From: a virus
DNA: 64,000 nucleotides
Reading direction: 5' to 3' (one strand)
Virus record (IMG/VR): IMGVR_UViG_3300009545_000003
Span: 5,568-69,567 of that record
Notes under the pieces: generated by a model
Seen by the model: only the letters and a program-made list of their open reading frames with translations
Database searches by the model: none
What the model was told of the DNA's origin: nothing
Position numbers and translations under genes: made by a program
Shown here: one piece after another, positions 4,529 through 60,844 of the stretch
Layout of the letters: each line of letters begins with the position of its first letter
Numbering within the stretch: the first letter of the stretch is position 1

Positions 4529-6241
4529 ATGCCAAGAGCTAGTAGGAAGAAGAAGACTGAGACTGTTGATAGTCTAGACGCAGCTCTAGACCTCAATATG
4601 CTCAGAAGCCTTCAGCCCGTGATGGCTGATAGCTATCAAAATGTTCCTGCTAGGATTGGAAATGGTACTCCTAATCTAGTAAACAGTGGAAACTATCCTT
4701 TAGTTCGTTTGACTGAGCAGTATCCTTTGATACTGAGTCTATACAGAAGCTCATGGATTGTTCGTAAAATTATTGATCAAGTCGCAAATGACGTGTTCAA
4801 AGTTTTTCCTGTTCTAGATTTCGATGTTTCTCCTGAGCAAGTATCTGCTTTTCGCAACATGCTTCTGAAGACTAGAACTATTACCAGACTTCGGTCACTA
4901 GCTAAGTGGGGTAGATTGTTTGGTGGCGCTGGCGCCATCATGGTTTTAGACGGTCATGATGATCTTCGGAAGCCTCTTGACGTAGATGACGTTCAAGTCG
5001 GGGCTTACAAAGGCCTCATCGTTCTTGATAGGTGGTCAGGCATCATTCCGGGACCTGAGATCAATTCTGACATCAATGATCCTGAGTCTTTCGGACTTCC
5101 AACTTATTACAACTGCATCATGGATGCGGGTAATGTTACGGTTCACCATTCTAGAGTTTTACGATTTACTGGAAGAGAACTTCCTCAATGGGAAGTTCAG
5201 GTTGAACTGTACTGGGGCATGTCAGAAGTAGAAGTAATATTCGATGAGCTGAAGAAGAGAGATTACAGTTCATGGAATATCGTATCATTATTGACGCGCG
5301 CCCAGGTAATGGCTTTGTCAGAACCTCAATTAGCCACCATGATGTCTGGTGCAGGAACATCTAATGATGCGTTTAACATGTTTGTTAACCGTATGGAGAT
5401 GATTTCTCAGCAACTGAACAACAACGGACTTTTGATTCTCGGTAAGGACGGAAAGCTCGAAAATAAGAGCTACGGATTTGGTGGAGTTTCTGACGTCTAC
5501 CGAGAGTTCATGAAGGATCTTGCGGCGGCAACGGGCATACCCTATGAGGTAATCTTTGGCCGAAACCAGGGTATGGGCGGCGAGATGGGGAACAACGGAG
5601 GCGCTTCTCTTCAGTTATACGATAACATGATTGAAGAGAAAAGAATTTCAGAAGCCAATCCAGTCATAGATAAGTTGCTTCCAGTAATGTGTATGTCTAT
5701 CTTCGGGAAAGTTCCTGAAGATTTAGTGTATCATTGGACTCCAATAAGGGCTCTTACTGAAAAGGAGCGTTATGATCTTGCGAAATCGGCTGTTGAGTCT
5801 GTACTCATGGCTTACAACGCTGATCTCCTCACTAAGAAAGAGGCCCGTACTGAGCTTGCTACTGGCTCTGGTACTCATGGATTGTTTAATCTTCCACAGG
5901 AAGCTGTCGCTGCTACACCCGACCTATATGCTTCAGAGGCTATGCTTGGCGCTCAATTTGATCCTGATGGCAACGATGAAGATACAGTAGGTGGAGTATC
6001 AGTGGGTGAAGATCCTCCTGATGGCACTCCTGGAGCTCGTTCAGGTGAGCAAGTTCCCGTCGAAGCCAAACCTGTTGGAGTTAAAGGTCTAATCTGGCAC
6101 AAGAGCCGTAGATTGACTGAAGGACCTGGTGGAGCTGCTTCTAAAGGAAGTGCTGGAACTAACTCATCAAGCACTACTAAATCTCTTCACCAATCCATGC
6201 AGCACTCTGTTAAACATGAGACAAAGAAACCAAAAAGATAG
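4529..6241 (+). CDS. portal protein (DUF1073-like)
   Basis: Follows TerL; LYRSSWIVRKIID, WGRLFGG, HHSRVLRF and AAATGIP motifs. Confidence 0.9.
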   Translation: MPRASRKKKTETVDSLDAALDLNMLRSLQPVMADSYQNVPARIGNGTPNLVNSGNYPLVRLTEQYPLILSLYRSSWIVRKIIDQVANDVFKVFPVLDFDVSPEQVSAFRNMLLKTRTITRLRSLAKWGRLFGGAGAIMVLDGHDDLRKPLDVDDVQVGAYKGLIVLDRWSGIIPGPEINSDINDPESFGLPTYYNCIMDAGNVTVHHSRVLRFTGRELPQWEVQVELYWGMSEVEVIFDELKKRDYSSWNIVSLLTRAQVMALSEPQLATMMSGAGTSNDAFNMFVNRMEMISQQLNNNGLLILGKDGKLENKSYGFGGVSDVYREFMKDLAAATGIPYEVIFGRNQGMGGEMGNNGGASLQLYDNMIEEKRISEANPVIDKLLPVMCMSIFGKVPEDLVYHWTPIRALTEKERYDLAKSAVESVLMAYNADLLTKKEARTELATGSGTHGLFNLPQEAVAATPDLYASEAMLGAQFDPDGNDEDTVGGVSVGEDPPDGTPGARSGEQVPVEAKPVGVKGLIWHKSRRLTEGPGGAASKGSAGTNSSSTTKSLHQSMQHSVKHETKKPKR

Positions 6242-11539: not shown

Positions 11540-12289
11540 ATGGGTAACTATGGGTTTCCAGATATAGCAGGTTTCTATGACATGCTGTACGGCACTGCCG
11601 GAGTAGATTTCGGTGGCCTTACTCTGATGTATTTCGGCGGGGCAGCTGGAATGGTATTCTCTGGAAACCCACAGTACACCCTAACTGATTTTCTGTCTAT
11701 TTATCCTAAATTCTTTGGCCCGCCTACTGAACTTACTACAATTGTCATAGTTCTAAATTCTCCAATAGTTTCTGGCTTGACTTCACAGCAACTTGCTGGA
11801 ATTAAAGTAGGTCAATTAGTAGTAAATCTTAATTCCATTCCGAAAGATACTTTGGTTGAGTCCATAAACACAGGCACCGGAACAATTACTCTTACAAATG
11901 TAGCTACCGCTAATGATACTTCTCTCACAGTATACAAAGCACCGTGGGCGCCTTTGATTGTGATGATGACTTATCTTCAGCTTGCTTTAGCTTGTGTGAT
12001 GCAGGCTAGATATAAGCAGATGTGGATCATGCAGGTAGCTTATTTTGTGGCACATTACATTACTCTCTACCTAAGAACAGAAGCTGGTCCTAATATCACG
12101 GCTGCTCAAGTAGCCTCATCTGGATTGACTAAAGGAATTATCGTCCACAGAGCGGCTGGCGATGTAAGTGCTAGTTCAAAGGTGATTGACGGCTGGGAGA
12201 ATTGGGGTGCTTGGGGCGAAACTCAGTATGGAGAATTGTTTATCACAGTAGCTATGTCTACTTGTGCCGGACCTATATGGGTGCCCTAA
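11540..12289 (+). CDS. head-tail connector (DUF4054-like) with inserted beta domain
   Basis: F...YPKF, YFVAHYITL, GDVSAS and W..TQYG motifs. Confidence 0.75.
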   Translation: MGNYGFPDIAGFYDMLYGTAGVDFGGLTLMYFGGAAGMVFSGNPQYTLTDFLSIYPKFFGPPTELTTIVIVLNSPIVSGLTSQQLAGIKVGQLVVNLNSIPKDTLVESINTGTGTITLTNVATANDTSLTVYKAPWAPLIVMMTYLQLALACVMQARYKQMWIMQVAYFVAHYITLYLRTEAGPNITAAQVASSGLTKGIIVHRAAGDVSASSKVIDGWENWGAWGETQYGELFITVAMSTCAGPIWVP

Positions 12290-19569: not shown

Positions 19570-19656
19570 TGTGCAAATACTGGATGATAAATTATACATT
19601 ACCTGTATGCACAAGTAAACCCTTGGTATCCCTGGATTTCCCTGGAGTGACCCTGG
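19570..19656 (+). repeat. dispersed palindrome + CCCTGG element, copy 1
   Basis: TGTGCA 19570...TGCACA 19613, then CCCTTGG/CCCTGG at 19620, 19630, 19640, 19651. Confidence 0.85.
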
Positions 19657-24733: not shown

Positions 24734-27700
24734 TTGAAAAAGATAAGTTTGCTGCTTCTACTCATGTTTACAATTTCCCTTAGTGCTCAGACAATTACTA
24801 CTCCAAATGTAGGTTTAGAACTACCGGCTGCTGGGTCAACTAATTGGAATCTACCTCTTAACTACAACTTTAATCTTCTTGATCAGTTACTTGGTGGGTT
24901 AAAGACTTCTGGACTTAAGTTAGCGTATCAGCCTATTTTGTCTCTAGGTTCACCTAGTGCTATCTGCAACGCTAACAATAAAGGTCAGATGGACTTTGAC
25001 ACTACTACATCTCCTTGGACTCAGTATGCTTGTGATGGCATTAGTTCTTGGCATGCAGTTGGCGGTAGTGGTGGGGGAGGTGGAGGAGCTACTTTTCCAA
25101 CCTTACCTGGTATTGTTTGGAATACCACAACTCTAGCCTCCAGGAACGCCGTTTTTGGTGATATAGTTGGGTTATGGGGTAGTTGCACTGGATACCTTAA
25201 ATCTGATGGAACATGTTCTATTCCATCACCTGGTACATCAGGCACAGTAACACCTGACAGTAAGTACAACCGCGGAAACGGAATGTACTTAGTTGGTGAT
25301 TCTACCTCTATCGGTGGTGTTATTACTCTTTCAGGAGCCCCTGTTAATGGCACTGGAAGTTTTGACTGTCCTGGCCCGGCGAACGCAAACTGGGGTCAAA
25401 CATCTCTTCGTCTTGACGTCACTCCTTATCAATATTTTAATTGTGACAAGACAACTTCGACTTGGAAAGAAGGAACACCTCTCAACTCTACGGTCGAAAT
25501 GATCTTTGCAAATTTCAATCAGCAAAGCACACAACCGTTGAGCACGGGTGACTATCCGTACCCTGGCACTCGCTACTCAAATAGCGGCGGCATTCCTAAC
25601 TCTGGTAATGCTGCTTGTCTAGATGTGTATAACACGCAACTCTATGCGTGGGAAGACCCTGCTGATAATCGTCAGAACACCTACTTTCTTAACTGCGGAA
25701 TTGGCGACTGGCTTAACTGGGCTCACTCGATTGGATGGGGGACGATTGCCGATGGGCCTTCAACCATTGTCGGCACAATCAGAGCGGCTGTATCTTATGC
25801 TGGCACGCCTCGATCTGGCCGCATTCCTGCGCAATCTACATCATCGGTAACGACGTCAGGTACGTGGACAAATTTTGATCCTACCAATTCGTCAACGACT
25901 GTGAGCGGAACATGGGCAAGCGGTGCTGCGTCTGGCTCGATTACCACACCGGGCAGCATAGCGCATTACTGGCGCGTGTCGGACACCACAAACCCAAACT
26001 CGATACCGTCTGGAACATACGTCACTGTCATCACAGGCAGCGCGGTTACATTGTCAGCGTCTACAACGGCTGCTATCACTGGCGACACGTTGCTATTCTG
26101 GAACCCGTCTATCGCGCCGTTTCGTGCAGGCTACGCCAAGTGCGGCACGTCTGGCGCCGTGATGGAGTTCACTACTATGCCTGCATCGGGTGCACTCGAC
26201 TTTACGTACCTTATAGACGGCACACCGGGCACGGCAACAGCCAATATATCTATTGATGGTGTGGCGGCTGGATCAGTTAGTAGCGGTGACGGCGGCGCGT
26301 TCAGCACCGTGCACTATGCGCAGGCATGGTGGGCTAAGAGGTTCCTGCTAGTTGGTACCGCTCAGCACAAGTTTGACGTGACTGTTACATCGGGTTCATT
26401 CTGTCCAATCGAAGTGACTACCCCTAAGCCGATCGGTTGGGATGGTATGTCGCAACCCAAAGTTGTGCAAAGTATTATGCCGCCTGCGGGTGATGGGTAC
26501 AACGGTCTCGACAACTTAATATCTGAAGCACAAGTTTCTATCATTAACGAACTGAAAGGTGACGGATACAACATTAGTGCGGCTGATCTCTGGGGCGGGT
26601 GGCCTGAGTCAAAAGGTAATCTCACACCGGGCTTTGGTTTTCCGTTCTGCGTACACCATGCGTGCGTTTACAAGAACGGCATCGATGGTGTGTATGAGTC
26701 GTCGCCGCACTTCAACGTTGCTGGCAACACACTCAACGCATACACGAATCTGCAAGCAGCAGATCGTATACCTAACCCTGCGCCAAACTTGCTGCCGGGC
26801 ACGTCTGGCTTGCTCACTGTAGACAAGACACAGAGCGCGGCGATTACAGATGTTGATGCAACAAAGGTCGATGTACTCACAAATTCAAATACACATTCTA
26901 CGGGACCGCAAAATGTTCTCACTGGTGGGTACCTTAAAGTTGGTGAGAGGTATTATGCCGTGGGCAATCCAAACTCAAACATCATCACTAACAGTGGTAC
27001 GTTCACTGGTGGTTCTGCGGCCATATCTGTAACGGCAGGGCGTTCACTTATCGTCATCATGGACAACGCCTCTGTCGCCACTCTGTCTGGTGGTGAAGCA
27101 ACCATCAACAAAACACTCGGCACAGGTGGAGGATTCACAGTCTCTGGTACAGCAATCAAGAACGTGGTGGGCGGTACCGAGACGCTTACAATTTCACCAG
27201 CGGCAAGCACTACAACTTGGATTGAGTTCTCGAATCTAAACCAGACGACACCGTTCGAAGCTTCGACAGCGTTTGGCGTACTGCCTCAGTTCATAATTTT
27301 TCAGAAGCAGACTGAGAACATGCTGATCACAGCACCGGGAGATTTACTGATCAGCTTCAGTACACAAGGTTGCACCAATTTGAGCAACGCAACATCGACT
27401 CCACCGTGGACCGCACCAGACGGTATGACCACGTTTGTGCCTAGCGCTGGCAGTCTCACCGGTATGCGTGTGTGGACCGGAGTAACACCCCCACTGGGCT
27501 CAGTGAACTATACGCTTACACCGGGCCGTCATTGTACGTCCATCGATAACGGTGACAGGTACTACGGACTATTTGCGGTGCGCCCCTCATTCGCAGCTAA
27601 TCAGAGTGCACACGTAACTGAGTGGGTCGATGAAAACGGCGTGCTTCAATCATGGGTAGATCGCGCTGGAGCACCGGGCGGAAATCTTGCGGCTGGTGGT

Positions 27701-30848: not shown

Positions 30849-30872
30849 TGCTAGCGGGGGTAAGGAGATAGA

Positions 30873-31202
30873 ATGGGAGTATTTTTTGAGAAGGCAATAG
30901 TAAACTGGAAGTCAACTGTTCAAGGCATCCTAACAGCACTTCTCGGGACGACAGGTCCACTCTCGGCTTTTCTAGCTGCTCTTCAAGCTATTAAGCAAGC
31001 CGCCAATCAGGGAGCAGCTGACTATCGACTTGCTATTTGGGGTGCGGGACTTACTTGTCTTGCTGCTACTCTAAAGGTGTGGCTCGGTTTGATTTCAAAT
31101 GACGCGAAGCCTTCGGCGACTTCATCTGTCACTATTGAATCTACCTCACCGATTGTTGTACCACCTGTCGCAGTTGAAACGCCGACGGAGAAAAAACAAT
31201 GA
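30873..31202 (+). CDS. two-TM membrane protein (holin-like)
   Basis: NWKSTV.G motif; two hydrophobic segments. Confidence 0.55.
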   Translation: MGVFFEKAIVNWKSTVQGILTALLGTTGPLSAFLAALQAIKQAANQGAADYRLAIWGAGLTCLAATLKVWLGLISNDAKPSATSSVTIESTSPIVVPPVAVETPTEKKQ

Positions 31203-31666
31203 AGAAATTTTTCTTTCTAGTACCTTTCGTACTCCTGCTTGCAGGTTGTCCGTCTGGCACTAATCAGCAGAAAGCAGCTAATGTCGCTAAAAACGTTGCA
31301 ACATTTGTGAAGCAAGCACAGAACACCGAAATCATGGTCTTTAATTCAGGACAATCTTGCTTGGTAAGTAATCCTGATGGTAAGGGCTGCATCGTCATTA
31401 CCCAAGAAGAGCATGTATTTCTTGAGCAGCAGTTCAAGGCTATCTTTACGCTAGACAACACATTGGATTCATGTATCAGAACATCAACTACTACTGCTGG
31501 AATTGTTCAGTGTGCTGATACTGCAGTGAATACAGTGGATGATTTGAATTCGCAGGGAGTACTCCAACTCAAATCAGATAAAGCACGATCCACATTCACA
31601 TCAGTAATCAGTGCGGTGAAACTCGGTATTCAGAGTATCTCAACAATTCTGGGAGGTGGTCAGTGA
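31199..31666 (+). CDS. lipoprotein (spanin-like or other)
   Basis: Lipobox LLAGC after hydrophobic leader; extra Cys pairs. Confidence 0.7.
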   Translation: MKKFFFLVPFVLLLAGCPSGTNQQKAANVAKNVATFVKQAQNTEIMVFNSGQSCLVSNPDGKGCIVITQEEHVFLEQQFKAIFTLDNTLDSCIRTSTTTAGIVQCADTAVNTVDDLNSQGVLQLKSDKARSTFTSVISAVKLGIQSISTILGGGQ

Positions 31667-31866
31667 ATCCAGCCACAGGTCTTTTGATTGCTCAACAACT
31701 GTTGACTTATCTACCACAGGCAATTGCGTCTTACAACGTTTTGAGGGCTGAACTTAAGGATGCTACTTTGCCTCCTGCAGAAGAACTTTTAGCAAAGGCG
31801 GACGCTATTAACAATGCTGGAATCGCTGATGCGGATGTTGAGATCAATAAGTATAAGAAGCCTTAA
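31663..31866 (+). CDS. small hypothetical protein ending the late operon
   Basis: GTGA overlap, GGAGG RBS. Confidence 0.6.
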   Translation: MNPATGLLIAQQLLTYLPQAIASYNVLRAELKDATLPPAEELLAKADAINNAGIADADVEINKYKKP

Positions 31867-31887
31867 GGCGGGAATCTTCCTGCTAAG

Positions 31888-31937
31888 AGTACGTGTATAG
31901 CACCATTATACTATATTCTCCTTGTTAGACACGTACT
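31888..31937 (+). ncRNA. candidate trans-acting antisense hairpin
   Basis: AGTACGTGT/ACACGTACT stem; 31903-31924 matches 39626-39647 at 21/22 nt. Confidence 0.55.
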
Positions 31938-31979
31938 ACGCCCTGCATCTCTTCGGAGGTGCAGGGCGTTCTTGTGTTT
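31938..31979 (+). terminator. terminator between convergent arms
   Basis: 14-bp stem with C(TTCG)G loop and T-rich tail. Confidence 0.85.
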
Positions 31980-32462
31980 CTACGCATTTTCAAGGGCCAC
32001 CTTAATCTCCAGAGCAGTCGGCTGATCTGGGTAGTGAAGAATACCTTCAATATCAGGAGCCGCGAAATCAGGTCCCTTTGGAGTTTTTGTCCCATATTTC
32101 TGACCCGGTTCCACAGGGGCCACCGTCTTTGTCATGTTAGACAGATGGACTTCTTTAAAGATTCTATCTGCTGGAATACCGTATGATACGTCAGTTCCCA
32201 CAAGAACATAAACAGAATCAGCTATTCCATCTGCTATCTCAGAAATGTTTTCTAGACTTGGATCAAAATCTCCAATATCAATTTGTACTGGAAATCCCAT
32301 GGCCATCAGTGTCTCTCTGACTTCTTCAACTATCAAAGAAACACGCAAACGTTTTACTTCAATCGGAATATCTAGTGTCGGTGTTTCGCTTACAAGATGC
32401 CCATACTTATTATGGAAATCTTTAAGCATCTGCTCCTGACTGTTCAATTTTAAGGCGATCAT
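31980..32462 (-). CDS. MazG-like/all-alpha NTP pyrophosphohydrolase
   Basis: FH, LIVEEVRE, EIADGIADSVYV, EVHLSNMTK and KGPDF motifs. Confidence 0.85.
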   Translation of the reverse strand: MIALKLNSQEQMLKDFHNKYGHLVSETPTLDIPIEVKRLRVSLIVEEVRETLMAMGFPVQIDIGDFDPSLENISEIADGIADSVYVLVGTDVSYGIPADRIFKEVHLSNMTKTVAPVEPGQKYGTKTPKGPDFAAPDIEGILHYPDQPTALEIKVALENA

Positions 32463-32928
32463 ACAGTTCCTTTCGTTTCTCCAGTCTGATTCGGTTAAAG
32501 GTTTCTACGCCATGCCCGTCTACGAGATAAGGGCCCTTGGGTAGCCAGATTAAAGGATTGTCATTACGTTTTCTATTGTATAACGCTAGTAAATCCAGGG
32601 GTATCAAGGCGGTTGTGCAAGCAACTGGATGATATATAATATATAAAACGGTTGCACACCGGGCCAGGCGTTTACAAACTTCGTACTGGCGCAGATCATT
32701 TACAGCATCCCAGGGCTGGCAAGACGGAACACCGTCATGAATCTGTATAGCGTCTTTTGCTTCATTAATCTTTATTTCAAAGAACGTCACTACCCCTGAA
32801 AATGCATGGTATGAATCAGGTAAACCAAGAGTAGTGCGGTCACTGCTTTTGATCACAGTGCCGCCTATCTCTTGTTTCACTCTATTAGAGAACGTCGCAT
32901 TGAAGTAGTTCTCTCTCACTCTAACCAC
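32422..32928 (-). CDS. PD-(D/E)xK nuclease (VRR-NUC/Holliday junction resolvase-like)
   Basis: E..F, GLPD, FFEIK and Q motifs. Confidence 0.7.
   Translation of the reverse strand: MVRVRENYFNATFSNRVKQEIGGTVIKSSDRTTLGLPDSYHAFSGVVTFFEIKINEAKDAIQIHDGVPSCQPWDAVNDLRQYEVCKRLARCATVLYIIYHPVACTTALIPLDLLALYNRKRNDNPLIWLPKGPYLVDGHGVETFNRIRLEKRKELYDRLKIEQSGADA
32591..32658 (-). repeat. dispersed palindrome element, copy 2 (degenerate, intragenic)
   Basis: TGTGCAA 32614...TTGCACA 32658 with CTGGATGATA core; AAATCCAGGG box on the left. Confidence 0.6.
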
Positions 32929-33058
32929 CTTTTACTGCATCTAGAGCACATCCATCCATTTTCAATCTTATCCCACTCTGTCCAACAGTGAACAAAGAAA
33001 CACCAGGCATAAGAACAAAGTGTTAAGATTCCTTCGAGTAGAATTACAATAGCGTACT

Positions 33059-39071: not shown

Positions 39072-39121
39072 ACCAGAGGTTGATCGTAATCGATCAGCTG
39101 AGATGTTTGGTTTAAAGGGGT

Positions 39122-39197
39122 ACGGGGTGAGGAGCCTTTCGACTCAACCCACCCCGCAGACTAGCACACAGTAAGGAGAACTCAAACTGTGTACTAG
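39122..39197 (-). other. tandem RNA hairpins after the wHTH gene: anti-SD loop hairpin then GC-rich GAAA hairpin
   Basis: 12-bp stem with loop TTGAGTTCTCCTT; G-U wobbles favour the minus strand. Confidence 0.65.
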
Positions 39198-39200
39198 AAG

Positions 39201-39629
39201 TTAAGCAGCTGCAACAACTGAGGAAGCAGGAACTTCGGTAGCTGCTGGAGCCGGCGTAACATGCTCATCGACAATCTTGAGCGTCTTCATCTGCTTGAGG
39301 TGCCACTCTGTAGAAGCCTCAACCGGATGCTTCGACTGAAGACCTTCAACATTCTTTGCGATCTCAGCTACGCTGAAGAATTTGTCTTCACCCTGTGCAG
39401 CAGCGAGTTTCTGCATTGACTTCACAACCGCTGCGCGTTGTCCAGAAAACTTGCTCACGTCAACACCTTGCAGAAGACGATAGCTCGCAGAACCCTTAGC
39501 CACGCGGGGCTTCTTTTCTTTCGCAGGAGCATCTACCGAAGTAGTTGCTGTCTGAGCTGCCTTCGGCGCTTCTGCCGCTACCTTGTCGCCAGTCTTCTGC
39601 TTGCCCTTGACTTCAGTCTCGTTTGCCAT
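39201..39629 (-). CDS. winged-helix-like DNA-binding protein (paralog 3 of 4)
   Basis: SYRLL...FSGQR...EASTEWHLKQM; Lys/Ala-rich N-tail; AAGGAGAA RBS. Confidence 0.65.
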   Translation of the reverse strand: MANETEVKGKQKTGDKVAAEAPKAAQTATTSVDAPAKEKKPRVAKGSASYRLLQGVDVSKFSGQRAAVVKSMQKLAAAQGEDKFFSVAEIAKNVEGLQSKHPVEASTEWHLKQMKTLKIVDEHVTPAPAATEVPASSVVAAA

Positions 39630-39650
39630 TATCCTATATTCTCCTTGGCT

Positions 39651-40274
39651 CTAGGCCACTATTTCCAGCACGCCTTCAGCGGCTAGTCTATGCACAAAGT
39701 AGGTCACTGTCCTACTTATTTTGCACTTTGTCTTTAACCTTCCAGTAGCTAATTCAGTGATCTTGTAGATACTAGAAGGTCCGACTTCTTTGAAAATTTC
39801 CACTATAGTACGAGGCCGACCTTTGATGTGTTGAATGTCCACATCTTTCTTAAGAGCATACTCACGATTAGTTTTATCGAGTCTGAGTGAAGTTTCGATG
39901 CAATCATCCCAAGCACTTTGATCAAGGGACTTTATGAATCGGTAAGCTTCTTCCTCAGAAATTTCATCTAACTCGGAAATTACTCTTGCGACTGTGTTAA
40001 GTGGAAATGGTTTGTTTGTTCGGATGAACAGATTAATCCTATCTTTGAAACTTTGACGAAACCTTTCGAAATTAAAGCTTGTCTTAGTTTCATTTAAAGG
40101 CCATAGTCTGTCTCCTGCCGATTTAACGAATTCATACTCTGTGAGTACTAACTCCGTTAATAAGACTGGATGAATTAGAAGGGCTTTTCTATACTTAGTT
40201 TCGAAGCAGATCCATACACCGAATCCAGTGAATGGAGCTTTCTCGTTGTAAGTAGTAACCTCGCGAATTTCCAT
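39651..40274 (-). CDS. protein with C-terminal winged-helix-like domain (paralog 4 of 4)
   Basis: EYAL...KGRPR.IV...TVTYFVHRL..EGV aligns loosely to the family. Confidence 0.5.
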   Translation of the reverse strand: MEIREVTTYNEKAPFTGFGVWICFETKYRKALLIHPVLLTELVLTEYEFVKSAGDRLWPLNETKTSFNFERFRQSFKDRINLFIRTNKPFPLNTVARVISELDEISEEEAYRFIKSLDQSAWDDCIETSLRLDKTNREYALKKDVDIQHIKGRPRTIVEIFKEVGPSSIYKITELATGRLKTKCKISRTVTYFVHRLAAEGVLEIVA

Positions 40275-45147: not shown

Positions 45148-45782
45148 ACTATCTCCAGTGTCTTTCGAAATGCTTCTGGCAAGACTTTGAAAGGAACTAT
45201 TGGCCAAAACACTTCATGATAGTTTCTAACAGCGTTTTCACTATGCATTGTGCAGACCATATGTTCTTCCGCCGATTGAGCTGATGTGCTTCCTGAGTTG
45301 ATGAACTTACAATCTTCAGCTAGATACACACTCTCATCAAAAGGATTCTTAAGAGCATATTCTCGCCGATACATTATTGAAGCTCCCCAGATACTGCCAC
45401 GATAGTGTGAAGCAACTTTCCTAACACTATCCCACCAGTAAACTTTGTTGTATCCTACAATGTCTCCACCAAATCTAGAAAACATGTCTAGCTGATCAGA
45501 TATCCTGTTAGGACCACTCCAATCATCGTCATCAAAATGACAGATGAACTCTCCGCTAGCTATCTTAGCTGCATAGTTTCTTTTCTCAGCTAAGTTTCTG
45601 AAATTGCCTCTAGTGTACCTACAACGTGGAAGACCGCCTAAGAGATCTATATTGCGAGATTCACTCTCAATAACGATCAGCTCTAGATTACTATAGGTTT
45701 GATTCCTATAGCAATCTAGAGCTCGCTTAAAGAGATCTCTTCTATTTATTGTAGGAATCGTAACTGTTACTAGAGGAGTCAT
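45144..45782 (-). CDS. GT2-family (GT-A) glycosyltransferase
   Basis: VTVTIPT.NR, QTY.NLELIV, KRN, GEFICHFDDDD and AED motifs. Confidence 0.88.
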   Translation of the reverse strand: MTPLVTVTIPTINRRDLFKRALDCYRNQTYSNLELIVIESESRNIDLLGGLPRCRYTRGNFRNLAEKRNYAAKIASGEFICHFDDDDWSGPNRISDQLDMFSRFGGDIVGYNKVYWWDSVRKVASHYRGSIWGASIMYRREYALKNPFDESVYLAEDCKFINSGSTSAQSAEEHMVCTMHSENAVRNYHEVFWPIVPFKVLPEAFRKTLEIV

Positions 45783-46380: not shown

Positions 46381-46476
46381 ATTTGTGCAAATCCTGGATG
46401 ATAAAATATACACCAGCATATTGCACAAATGACCCTGGGTTATCCCTGGATTTCCCTGGAGTGACCCTGGGTGATT
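46381..46476 (+). repeat. dispersed palindrome + CCCTGG element, copy 3
   Basis: Perfect ATTTGTGCAA/TTGCACAAAT inverted repeat at 46381-46430; CCCTGG at 46433, 46444, 46454, 46465. Confidence 0.9.
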
Positions 46477-52817: not shown

Positions 52818-52876
52818 AATACTTCTTCTCCTATGGTTGGCAGAATCGTTTGTTATATGATTTACTCTATAGTATT

Positions 52877-52906
52877 ATTATATAACAACTTAATATCGGA
52901 TGTAAA
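52877..52906 (-). promoter_or_regulatory. sigma70-like promoter TTTACA-N18-TATAAT
   Basis: Near-identical to 58634-58663; upstream of the Cro-like gene. Confidence 0.7.
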
Positions 52907-55358
52907 ATACTTTTTAAACTTTGTTTCATCGCTTATTTAGGTGTACAAGTGTTAAGAAGTCTTCCCATTGTTTAGATTCACCGTCTAATTCATAATGATC
53001 ATAGTGCTGTCCACAAAGTCTTTCAAAACCTCCTTGTGACTGTATCGAGTAAATTAAAGAAGTACCCCAAGGAAATTTCCATTCATGAGTTCCTGCATTT
53101 AGTAGACCATTGAGTTTAAGAAAGATATCGAAATGTTCCATCTCAAAATCTCTCTTACTTTTCTCTGAGGCAAAAACATAAAGAATTCTAGAATTTGGAG
53201 TTAAAAGATTCTTGAAGAACTGACGTTCTTGCTCAATTTTAGAAATCAGACTCCGTCTCAGTCCAGAAGACTGTGTCAATCTGAATTTCGGGTTCTTTGG
53301 GTTCTTCACCGCCTCCACGAACTGAGAATAGAAGCTTGATGAGGTAACAGAGTCCTTGTTCGTATTCTTCGCTGTCATAGTTTCCTATCCATTCTGAGGT
53401 TATTCGTAGCTCACCGTTATAGCCACGTAATTCGTAGTATCTACGCCATGAAAGAGCATGAACTAGCGTAGGTAAAGGCGACGAATTAAGAGGAACGTTA
53501 AAAGAGTCTACTACGTTGTATTCCCGTCTCTCCACGTAATATCCTCACGATCTGATCTTCATGCATGCAGATGTTTCCTAGCCTGTTTAAAACGTCACTG
53601 GCCTGCATTCTAGCTTCATCTACCCAAACATATCCCATCATGCCATCTTCTTTGAGGTGATCTGAAGCATGCCATAGAAAGTACATAGCGTCATTCGTAG
53701 TTTCAGGCCAATAATCCCAATGAAACTCCTCCGGATTAGGTTCTGTAACCCAGCCATAACTGAACCGGTCACAGATTTCAATCGCGCAGTCTAGAACAGG
53801 ATCATCAACAGACCACCGTCTATACAATACAAGAGCAGTACAACTCATTTGATCCTCTCATAGTTGCATTCACGCTCTATCGAACTAACAGCTGTTGACA
53901 TGGAGGTGTACGGCCTTGGATCTCTGTAAGGATCTGCAATGAATATTTTCTCATCAAGTTGAATCAGTTCTCCGCAGATTTTACCATTAACTTTTAAGAC
54001 CCAAGTGCTGTCCTTAGAGTTAAACCATCCTGTTGCCAACTTGTTCATTTCGGTAAGACAACCTGCAAGATAGGCAACGCCTATCAGCATGGTTACTAGA
54101 ACGTATTTCATGAACGTTTTCCATCCTGTTCTATCAGAATACTTTCAAAAGCTGTTGCTGGAAATGAATGCCAACCGCATTCAGATTGAAAGTGCATTAC
54201 TCCAGTCTTACGATTGTGAGTCAACTTATAAATCTCACCATCATATCGGCTACACGGACCGTCATGTTCTTTTAGTCTCAATCTCATCCACATCGAGTGC
54301 TCCTTCTCTGGGCTGCGCCTCTCGGGATCGAGCAGCTATTCCCGTCATTGCACTAGCACCGTTTTTCCATGCCTGTATGTCTTGCTTGAGCGCGGCATTC
54401 TCGCCCTGTAATCGGCAGTTCACTTGTTGCAGATGGCTCAGATCATGAATGTGCGTAGCATTCGCTACTTCCAAATCGTGAATTTTGATCAGCGAGTTGC
54501 CATATGCGGAGCACAGTTCTTTTCCTTTGCGCTCGAAGTCGTCTCTCTCGGTGCGCAATTGCTCAATGTAAGATTCGGGAGCATAAACCTGTTTCTGTAG
54601 CTCACTGATCTGCTGGGCCTGGAGGGCTGAGTATTCTTCAATCCACGTCGCTACATCAGCGACATCTAGATTACGTGAAGACGTGAAACCCTTTTTCCAT
54701 AACCATTTCTTAATGTTCTCATGAATGTCTTCTCCTATTTTTCCTTGGCATACATGCGTATCAGTTATGCAGTTATAGGCTTTACCACATTGGCTGCAAA
54801 CTACTGGTCCACCTATAGTTTGTTCCATTTTACCCTCCAGTCACTTGCTGATCTTCTTCAACCTTAATCTGTAATCTACGCTGCAGAGCATTCGCTTCCT
54901 CAATATTCTTATTGAGTATAGCAAGTTGAAGGGCAATTTCTCCATGAAACACGATCTTTGCTCTTAGAGTCATGTCTTTGAGATTAGTCGTGAACATATC
55001 GATGGTCTGCTGAATTTCTCCTGGCGACATTAAGTGCATTCCTTTCTGTTCCATATACTTTCCGTTAGTCAAGACGTACATCGTAGTTTGATCGCTTTCG
55101 AATCCACTTCCAACAATCTTGTGACAACCAATGCAGAGATAGTGCCAGCTTCCTCGTATTCCGAAAGATGTGTGTTGACTGAGTGCCGTATCAAAGATGA
55201 TTTTAGGGCTCTTTTGGGAGCAGCTTTCACACCTTTGGCTTCTGATCGGATTCATCTGGCTCAGCCCTCGTTGGTAGTAACATACCATTACTATTGCGAC
55301 AGTATACGTTTCCTGAAGGTTTATGAAAATAGAACTCAGTCTTAGTCTGCTTGGATAG

Positions 55359-57780: not shown

Positions 57781-58633
57781 GCTCAAACTGAAATAGATTT
57801 CGAGTCATCATTCCAACCCATCACTTTGTCATCATTTTCTCTAATGGCAGTAGTCAGTTCATTCAACCTATTCTCTACTTCTTTAGAGACTTTCTCTGCT
57901 CTAGCAAGAGCTAGTACTTCCATTGCCATTATAAGCAAATCCCCAGTAGAAACCATTTCTTTGTTAACAGGCATTTTTCTTCTCCTCTTTTCGATGAATT
58001 CGTTTCATCCACCATTCTGAAATCCAGTGCATTCTTAGACTAAAGACTCGTCGCATCCAGATCAATTCTTCGCCTTTGTACTCTCCGTACACTATGACGA
58101 AAAGATCTATACACTTAAATCTGTGTGTGCCGTTGCAAAGGCAAGAGTTCATGGAATAGCGCCACGTTACTCTCTCATCGAGAATCTCAGAGAATAATTC
58201 CTGCGTCATTTGAAAGTCAGACACTATTCTACCTCCCATGGCTGGAGCTCACGAATATTGTTGCTGATCTCCTCAGCATAGACTCCAGTCTCATCTATTC
58301 GTGTTATTCGGTAAGAAATCGAACCAGTGCCTGGAGCGGCAGCATGGTGAACTACTGTATCTCCAATTTTATTAAGTTTAACTGCTCTAATATAACAATC
58401 GTATGGTTCTTCTACACCTTCACCTGTGAACACTGTAGGTGGATAAATCTTCTCTTCAGCCTGCATCGTCGTCTCTCCATCATGCGAATCGTCGCATTCG
58501 GTTGATGTTACTTAGGTAACTCTCACTACTTACTTTCATCACAATATTAGTGTATTGCAGTTAAATTTCTAAATACACAACCCAAAATTGTGATGATACT
58601 AAGTAGTAACTAATTTTTCACTATCATAATTAT

Positions 58634-58663
58634 ATTATATAACAACTTAGTATCGGTTGTAAA
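58634..58663 (-). promoter_or_regulatory. sigma70-like promoter TTTACA-N18-TATAAT
   Basis: 28/30 identical to 52877-52906; AT-rich intergenic region. Confidence 0.7.
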
Positions 58664-59653
58664 TAACAATGTTAAATATATTTTACAAGAACTACAGACA
58701 TACAAATTCCTCCTCATCAGAATCATAGTCACGTACAGTTATCCACTCTTTTTTCTCTCGAGGATACATTGCAAAGTGAATGAACTCCACAATCCAACCA
58801 TCCTCTTTTAGGCGTGTCTTACAGTGGTATCTAAAGGAATGGAGTAGTTTTGAACTCATTAGCTTTGGTGTTGGAATAGCCACCGTTCCATATGACGGCC
58901 CACGTTCTTCGAATGAATAGCAAAGAAACACTAACAAAACGTCTGCTGCTCTTGCTGTCAGATCTGGTGGAGTTCTCTTTACTCTGTACTTCTCCACAAA
59001 CTCAGTTTCGATCAAAAGCTTTGTCTCGTTCTTGATCTTAGATGTGTGAACTGGTGGCATTACTTCAATCTCCGAATGAGAAGACCTTTTCTGATTCTTT
59101 CAACATCCACTGCTGCCGTTTCTATCCACTTGTCTACTACAAAATCTATGAGTCCGGCATAGACCATTTCTCCCATAGAGTATGGAACTTTATAACACGG
59201 ACAGTCTGTCGTAAGGGATCCTTCTGCTCCACCACACATAGAGCAAATAAATAGATTGCAGATGTTACAAGTTACATCAGCACAATTCTCATGAGTTGTT
59301 CTTTCGTGCTTCATACTGTCTCCTTATGCCATAGCTTAGGCTGAGTAAGAGCCTCATCTATCTTACGGCTTACTTCTGGCCAGTTATAGTCTCTAGCATA
59401 CCAATTACCTGAAGTCACTATTTCTGTCTTAGCAAGTATTAGCGCTTCATAAAGATTACCTATCCGTTCGATAAGCAAAAGTTCTGATAGTCGCCCAATC
59501 TCACCAGGCATTTCAGTGCTTTCAGTCACAGGGCCACGAACCCACTCATCTAATAAGGTCCATCGTTCTTTTAAATCTTCAGGTATCTTCATATGTTCTC
59601 CTTAAAAATAGGGAGGCCACCCCTACCCAGAAGTCAGCCTCCCTTATGAAGCC

Positions 59654-60751: not shown

Positions 60752-60844
60752 AATCACCCAGGGTCACTCCAGGGATATCCAGGAGTATCGCAGGGTGACT
60801 TGTGCAAATATGGATATAGTAATTATCATACCCAGCCTTGCATA
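60752..60844 (-). repeat. dispersed palindrome + CCCTGG element, copy 4
   Basis: Reverse complement contains TCCCTGGAGTGACCCTGGGTGATT as in copy 3; TGTGCAA 60801...TTGCATA 60844. Confidence 0.88.

Follow-up and report, generated by a model that had tools for sequence, protein, structure and literature searches.

Sequence comparison marks positions 31888-31979 (module A) of the phage DNA analysed here, a stretch of 64,000 nucleotides referred to as the window, as a conserved + strand RNA element. This element would form the 3' end of the structural-gene transcript, and its hairpin loop copies the TIR (SD, spacer and start codon) of one early gene. We tentatively propose that module A base-pairs with SD-containing TIRs, above all that of gene 39201..39629, whose expression it would lower late in infection. 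From the sequence, we infer the existence of such an RNA, its timing, its pairing in vivo and the resulting repression.

The window comprises bases 5568-69567 of a 69,567-bp IMG/VR record of an uncultured soil phage, which has direct terminal repeats. Between about 3.2 and 31.9 kb, the + strand encodes the terminase large subunit, the portal, the major capsid protein and a 1541-aa fibre-like ORF, and this block is called 'late' here on the basis of its gene content. From 31,980 on, the - strand carries genes for a MazG-like pyrophosphohydrolase, a family A DNA polymerase, a dCMP deaminase, a thymidylate-synthase-fold enzyme, a P-loop kinase and a UvrD-type helicase. The element lies in the 113-nt gap between these converging gene blocks (31867-31979). 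The features concerned are the following.

31663..31866, + strand: last ORF of the structural/lysis block in the ORF list (67 aa), with its TAA at 31864-31866, 21 nt before hairpin A
31869..31884, + strand: small 7-bp hairpin predicted by folding, in this phage only; in the relative G001 the stop codon abuts hairpin A
31888..31937, + strand: hairpin A, predicted by folding, with arms 31888-31902/31923-31937 and an open 20-nt loop at 31903-31922
31903..31924, + strand: the target TIR copied over 22 nt; in + strand RNA this copy is antisense to the TIR, and its 18-nt core (31906-31923) is identical in G001
31938..31979, + strand: intrinsic terminator from folding and a pattern scan (hairpin 31938-31969 and U-rich tail)
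39121..39158, - strand: GC-rich GAAA hairpin from folding, terminator-like, directly after hairpin B
39161..39197, - strand: hairpin B, in the 3'UTR of the target itself, with a 12-bp stem and a 13-nt loop UUGAGUUCUCCUU complementing AAGGAGAA
39201..39629, - strand: gene of P0001 (142 aa), the predicted target, directly after ORF 39651..40274, with a disordered Lys/Ala/Pro-rich tail and a probable winged-helix core
39626..39647, - strand: TIR of this early gene as read from the sequence, with the SD AAGGAG at 39641-39646, an 11-nt spacer and the ATG at 39627-39629

When the gap was folded as + strand RNA, the small hairpin was followed by the long hairpin with its 20-nt loop and then by a 14-bp C(UUCG)G hairpin with a U-rich tail. 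All three structures that the first-pass annotation had described after the last late gene were thus present. The fold energy was -54.6 kcal/mol (z -7.65), and none of 200 shuffles folded as well. The - strand gave a weaker fold (-44.5, z -5.06), in agreement with the earlier remark that the wobble pairs favour the + strand. The predicted stem of hairpin A contains one A.G mismatch and one G.U pair. In the ensemble, the loop bases had unpaired probabilities of 0.55-1.00, and opening the 22 nt would cost 4.9 kcal/mol.

The terminator hairpin reads GCCCUGCAUCUC-UUCG-GAGGUGCAGGGC and is followed by UUCUUGUGUUU. With a 14-bp stem including 9 G-C pairs, a UUCG loop and the tail TCTTGTGTTT, it has the make-up of an intrinsic terminator, on the + strand only. 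As in 3'UTR-derived sRNAs, the element lies after the last ORF of the operon and ends at the terminator of that operon. A search of the whole window against Rfam returned no family at gathering score, the only rows at E<=10 being four miRNA rows at chance level. Our own terminator scan gave eight candidates and missed the terminator of module B, as hairpin B and the GAAA hairpin are called here. The same scan picked out, at 45679-45723 (- strand) inside the early block, a hairpin whose 19-bp stem is perfect and whose loop has 7 nt.

Positions 31903-31924 and 39626-39647 are identical at 21 of 22 nt. As had been noted from the sequence alone, the first site coincides with the 20-nt loop and the second is the reverse complement of the SD, spacer and start codon of ORF 39201..39629, together with the next base. 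At up to three mismatches, these are the sole matches in the window, and two matches occurred in none of 100 dinucleotide shuffles. Furthermore, the local alignment score of the two copies (39) was reached by none of 2000 shuffles. A distance of 7,723 bp separates the loop from the TIR, the two being direct repeats, and the copy reads as antisense because the two transcription units converge. Beyond the repeat, the similarity between the hairpin flanks and the end of ORF 39651..40274 was not significant, the scores being reached by 873 and 855 of 2000 shuffles. The target TIR was itself predicted to be unstructured (z -0.70).

Duplication of this kind was also seen elsewhere: at 818-843 and 1186-1211, two small - strand genes lying side by side are nearly identical in their TIR and first codons (CAAGGAGAATGAAATGGCA; 92% over 26 nt). 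Their TIRs are of the same style as the target's, which shows that this genome does duplicate pieces of TIR size. Two other views of the repeat were set aside. The 22-bp direct repeats were considered as att-like ends of a mobile cassette and rejected, since the replication module that they enclose is collinear in all relatives and the repeat measures 12 bp in G001. The loop was also compared with the AT-rich core of the E-type repeats (common ATTATAC / TACTATAT), and the resemblance was too weak to use.

The sole close relative is G001, a 67,780-bp record; the fragment G002 and the metagenome contig L247 belong to the same type. G001 is collinear with the window, with a mean identity of 76.6% in 60-nt windows (n=44,167; sd 8.9%). 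Blastn of 31000-33000 against the INPHARED phages gave zero matches, and a scan of viral contigs anchored on MazG gave 27 pattern hits, none of which was confirmed. Two DNA-pattern scans of viral contigs, one with the stem and one with a 15-mer of the loop, yielded 234 loci when pooled with other loci. Among these 234, the whole element was found only in the locus of the window itself and in G001 (two loci). Seven others have 19-20 nt in common with the loop, either through chance or because they resemble an RBS. In four further runs, the contigs of three were identical to the window sequence and the fourth also contained a variant of the G001 type that shares its TIR deletion. Where these contigs covered the region, no third haplotype was present, which leaves two in total. 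Among the 17 runs listed, none was of RNA. A metagenome scan with PolA gave eight loci and no lineage intermediate between G001 and the group at 63-68% identity. The more distant relatives are seven contigs with 59-68% PolA identity, five of which (L240, L242, L243, L244 and L249) reach the late/early junction.

Alignment with G001 showed 92.9% identity over 99 nt for positions 31885-31982. On the late side, 30859-31884 gave no blastn alignment, and the next HSP, on the MazG side, was at 71%. At the protein level, the flanking products are 34% identical over 64 aa (a 155-aa late ORF) and 64% identical over 151 aa (MazG). The conserved island thus corresponds exactly to hairpin A and the terminator. 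It belongs to the top 2.5% and is not unique, as 1,105 of the 44,167 windows have an identity of at least 93%. G001 retains without change the 9 outermost base pairs of the stem, the terminator hairpin (31938-31969) and the 18-nt loop core (18/18). As read from the alignment, hairpin A differs by three substitutions and two indels, located at the loop borders and the stem top, and the U-tract of the terminator tail carries one further substitution. The G001 hairpin folds alike, with a 23-nt loop. Taken alone, an unchanged 18-mer inside a 93% island is unsurprising (0.93^18 ~0.27).

Hairpin A was absent from the late/early junction in all five distant relatives that cover it (63-68% PolA identity), which makes it an innovation of the lineage of this phage and G001. 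In L242 and L249, the terminator is separated from the last late gene by a different repeat element, in which the inverted repeat TTGTGCAA...TTGCACA flanks an AT-rich core and CCWGG-type repeats follow. In L240, L243 and L244, no comparable intergenic hairpin was found at the junction.

The element of L242 and L249 belongs to a wider repeat family. Members occur in the window at 19570-19656, 46384-46470, 60752-60807 (inverted) and 32614-32658 (partial), and also at L242 ~12060-12160 and L249 ~6060-6200, the latter two at the place where this phage has hairpin A. In this family, an inverted repeat TGTGCA(A)...TGCACA surrounds an AT-rich core of ~30 nt resembling a -35/-10 pair, and 3-4 CCCTGG-type boxes follow, 10-11 bp apart. 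These repeats may serve as phage promoters that carry an operator and arrays for protein binding. In addition, two 58-nt AT-rich direct repeats, 76% alike, are present in intergenic regions on the early strand (52869-52926 and 58626-58683), with a partial copy at 26511-26533. Positions 58625-58663 are 97% identical to G001, and these repeats may be early promoters.

Candidate targets of the loop were ranked among our own TIR calls, of which the window has 113 and G001 has 134. By duplex energy only, the TIR of 39201..39629 ranked first of 113 in this phage (-28.5 vs -15.8 kcal/mol for the next-best TIR) and first of 134 in G001 (-17.7 vs -17.5). When the opening energies were included, it ranked first in this phage (-19.4 vs -7.7) and second in G001 (-11.0 vs -13.2). 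The gene named in the first-pass annotation was therefore by far the best predicted TIR target in this phage, and first or second in G001. The related claim that the match runs well beyond the shared SD also held: AAGGAGAA is present in 9 of the 113 TIR calls, yet none of the other duplexes came near that of the target. Among all 40-nt windows on both strands, the target TIR was the top non-self site in this phage (-28.5 vs -21.3), and the orthologous TIR was the seventh in G001 (-18.6 vs a best value of -22.8). Gene 39201..39629 is the only top candidate common to both phages, which reflects inheritance from one ancestor and is not independent evidence. The best predicted partner of the G001 loop is the TIR GAGGAGAATATGGAATG of a 97-aa gene at G001:57071-57364, which is confined to G001 (no tblastn hit in the window).

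The orthologous TIR of G001 reads CAAGGAGAATATAGAAATGG, with a spacer 2 nt shorter and one substitution. Against this TIR, the G001 loop would form 12 contiguous pairs and three more beyond a bulge, a score reached by 9 of 2000 shuffles. Since the G001 loop matches the TIR of the present phage at 17 of 18 positions, the comparison points to the longer TIR as ancestral and to a loss of pairing in G001. In the two lineages compared, no compensatory loop change accompanied this loss. The covariation proposed earlier as a check thus did not appear: the TIR change in G001 is unanswered in the loop, and the pairing falls from 21/22 to 12 contiguous pairs.

It had also been considered that the loop might only be a relic RBS for a - strand mini-ORF (MVLYTYS), which reads AAGGAG-N9-ATG GTG CTA TAC ACG TAC TCT TAG in this phage. 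In G001, CGAT stands in place of the ATG and no other start codon is in range, which makes a functional mini-ORF unlikely. The preservation of the 18-nt loop core in a phage devoid of this start codon weakens the relic reading.

Module B brings a second anti-SD hairpin, on the mRNA of the target gene. Hairpin B starts directly after the stop codon of 39201..39629. In G001, its loop is identical (13/13) and its stem shows two structure-preserving changes, U.G to C-G and A-U to G-C. In the GAAA hairpin, two 3'-arm substitutions each keep the predicted pair, as read from the fold and the alignment. The loop of module B had no outstanding TIR target (best value -14.9), the TIR of its own gene being at -11.7 over 8 nt. 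This second loop suggests a broader anti-SD theme rather than one dedicated trans regulator.

In L241 (~6040-6090) and L246, the target orthologue is followed by a AGUACAUA-GAAA-UAUGUACU hairpin and then by a GC-rich hairpin. This layout and the AGUAC stem start match modules A and B, and no anti-SD loop is present. The two-hairpin layout is therefore the older trait, to which this lineage added its anti-SD loops.

A genome-wide family of anti-SD loops was not detected. In a crude scan for stems of at least 8 bp, TCTCCT stood in the loop at 11 of 80 sites and the control TCCTCT at 9 of 44, and module A was missed. A scan based on MFE structures was equally unreliable, as it missed module B in this phage and both modules in G001, and again gave no enrichment. 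In the absence of enrichment in either scan, only modules A and B stand.

P0001, the product of the predicted target gene, has no Pfam hit and no PHROG hit. Among 5.8 billion proteins, only one other related cluster was found (79% identical), and six orthologues from related contigs align well over residues ~50-115. The AlphaFold model has a mean pLDDT of 67.9, with a core at 80-88 of beta-alpha-alpha-alpha-beta topology and disordered tails. In a structural comparison by VIA-align, the best match had a Z of 7.3 (rmsd 2.7 over 63 residues), in a range (Z <8) that is common by chance. Most of the 50 rows listed were winged-helix domains, as judged from the entry titles, and Foldseek gave no match at E<=0.001. 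A winged helix is plausible from the model. The assignment as 'wHTH' made from the sequence alone thus agrees with consistent but middling fold matches, and no Pfam, PHROG or Foldseek match at E<=0.001 stands behind it. The gene is kept in six of the seven more distant relatives. In the five distant relatives whose TIR was examined, it reads AAGGAGAA(A/T), a spacer of 4-7 nt and ATG (5/5).

Taken together, a specific 22-nt match in an open loop, a loop core that was kept and a related anti-SD loop in the 3'UTR of the target make pairing the simplest function for module A. In the proposed scheme, module A would form the 3' end of the + strand structural-gene transcript, with the long hairpin followed by the intrinsic terminator. 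The open loop would pair with SD-containing TIRs, foremost that of 39201..39629. As structural-gene transcripts rise, translation of this gene would decrease, or its mRNA would become exposed to RNases. Module A could act within the long mRNA or after 3' processing. A full 20-bp helix inside the closed loop is impossible without melting the stem, which counts against pairing. The trans-acting sRNA put forward in the first-pass annotation is favoured by the conservation of the island, the open loop and the top rank of the target; the absence of covariation and of the hairpin in the five distant relatives speaks against it. That the target protein is abundant, and that its repression would clear DNA for packaging, as also put forward there, is conjecture.

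Nearly as likely as pairing is a reading in which module A is a passive 3'-end structure, as a spacer between stop codon and terminator, as a guard against 3' exonucleases or both, and the loop is a fossil copy of the TIR that pairs with nothing. This account is possible rather than probable. A recent copy that serves no function would suffice to explain the near-perfect identity, and the duplicated TIRs at 818-843 and 1186-1211 (92%) provide a precedent. It accords with the missing covariation between loop and TIR, with the distant relatives that manage without an anti-TIR loop where the junction is readable, and with the two hairpins after the L241 and L246 orthologue, the first of which has a loop devoid of anti-SD. 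A role as spacer is in line with the dependence of termination efficiency on the distance between stop codon and terminator, described in the relevant part of PMC4824070. However, a fossil should decay at about 23% per site, the genome rate, whereas the 18-nt core is intact and the changes in the hairpin are confined to the loop borders and the stem top. In addition, module B also displays UUCUCCUU in its conserved loop (13/13), and the probability of an 8-mer anti-SD occurring by chance in a 13-nt loop is ~1e-4. The same UUCUCCUU, common to both loops, might instead be the site of a phage or host protein that recognises pyrimidine-rich loops at 3' ends, the likeness to an RBS being secondary. 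Two independent conserved hairpins on opposite strands, each operon-sense and adjoining a terminator, do carry this 8-mer. Such a protein site nevertheless appears improbable, as the conservation of module A and its match to the TIR run 10 to 14 nt past the common 8-mer and no candidate RNA-binding protein was identified.

It is more doubtful still that the element acts on the other strand or as DNA, whether as a ribosome site of the mini-ORF on read-through early transcripts, as a promoter or as a protein-binding DNA site at the junction. In this phage, the - strand of the loop does present AAGGAG-N9-ATG, and TATAAT and TATACT can be read in the loop on the - and + strands, respectively. The terminator has no U-tract for - strand transcripts, so that early transcripts may read through, and L242 and L249 have a promoter-like inverted-repeat element at the same position. 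On the other side, G001 has no start codon after the SD, the wobble pairs and fold energies favour the + strand, and the conservation of the stem points to RNA. Moreover, the promoter scan gave no sigma-70-like site in the hairpin, and no -35 match was seen by eye.

Pairing of module A with the early TIR therefore remains our preferred, if tentative, reading. In a more speculative extension, which we regard as rather unlikely, a lytic phage would have copied a 22-nt early RBS in direct orientation into the hairpin loop of a convergent late operon. With module B, this loop would constitute a two-tier, protein-free RNA timer of the early-to-late shut-off, silencing a winged-helix protein. If the pairing is real, the phage would time the shut-off of an early protein using only the 3' end of its late mRNA, and the regulator would have a simple origin, a ribosome site having been duplicated directly into a converging transcription unit. 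The 21/22 match makes this a convenient case for a reporter test.

Compared with known systems, the element is best placed beside the named families and not in any of them, as at least one defining feature of each is absent here. RNAs of the OOP type are cis-encoded antisense RNAs, transcribed opposite their target at the same locus; here, in contrast, the loop and the TIR lie at separate loci, as direct repeats 7,723 bp apart. CpxQ and DapZ are base-pairing sRNAs that are 3'UTR-derived or terminator-associated. In phage lambda, the LPR1/PreS sRNA ends at the terminator tL2a and most LPR1 targets are host-encoded, according to 10.1101/2024.10.31.621285. Like sRNAs of the LPR1 type, module A is located at the end of an operon, shares its intrinsic terminator and has a predicted seed aimed at a TIR. 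Unlike them, it holds this seed in a closed hairpin loop and not in a single-stranded 5' stretch, and its predicted target is one of the phage's own genes. In the literature searched, few phage sRNAs act in trans on genes of the phage itself. In virulent phages, 3'UTR-derived ncRNA candidates are listed, as yet untested, in the pertinent part of PMC10914365. A phage 3'UTR loop antisense to an early TIR was not encountered in full-text literature searches or in the pertinent part of the review PMC12197685.

The 6C RNAs of Actinobacteria (PMC6486639) and the cuckoo/CcsR RNAs (PMC4615179) are portrayed, in the portions of these papers relevant here, as anti-SD-loop sRNAs with 2 to 4 hairpins of the same C-rich motif and many targets. 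Pyrimidine-rich hairpin loops facing purine-rich mRNA sites, with no need for a chaperone, are common to them and to the present element. The differences are that here each transcript has one U/C-rich loop, the match of module A is gene-specific and Rfam gives no hit. [quoted passage not shown] The likeness is that the gene has a strong SD and a terminator of its own and encodes a small DNA-binding protein of the nucleoid type, P0001 being likened to this type from a middling fold match; the pairing in hbs tunes RNase Y cleavage and does not mask the SD. In icaR of S. aureus, an anti-SD motif of the 3'UTR pairs with the SD region and blocks initiation, in the account given in the relevant part of PMC3868564. 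By analogy, module B is an icaR-like candidate: the SD that it complements over 8 nt belongs to the mRNA in whose 3'UTR it is located. Module A differs in that it belongs to a convergent transcript of the opposite strand, 7.7 kb away, and would act in trans; its complementarity of 21/22, which includes the spacer and the AUG, is far longer than the UCCCCUG of icaR.
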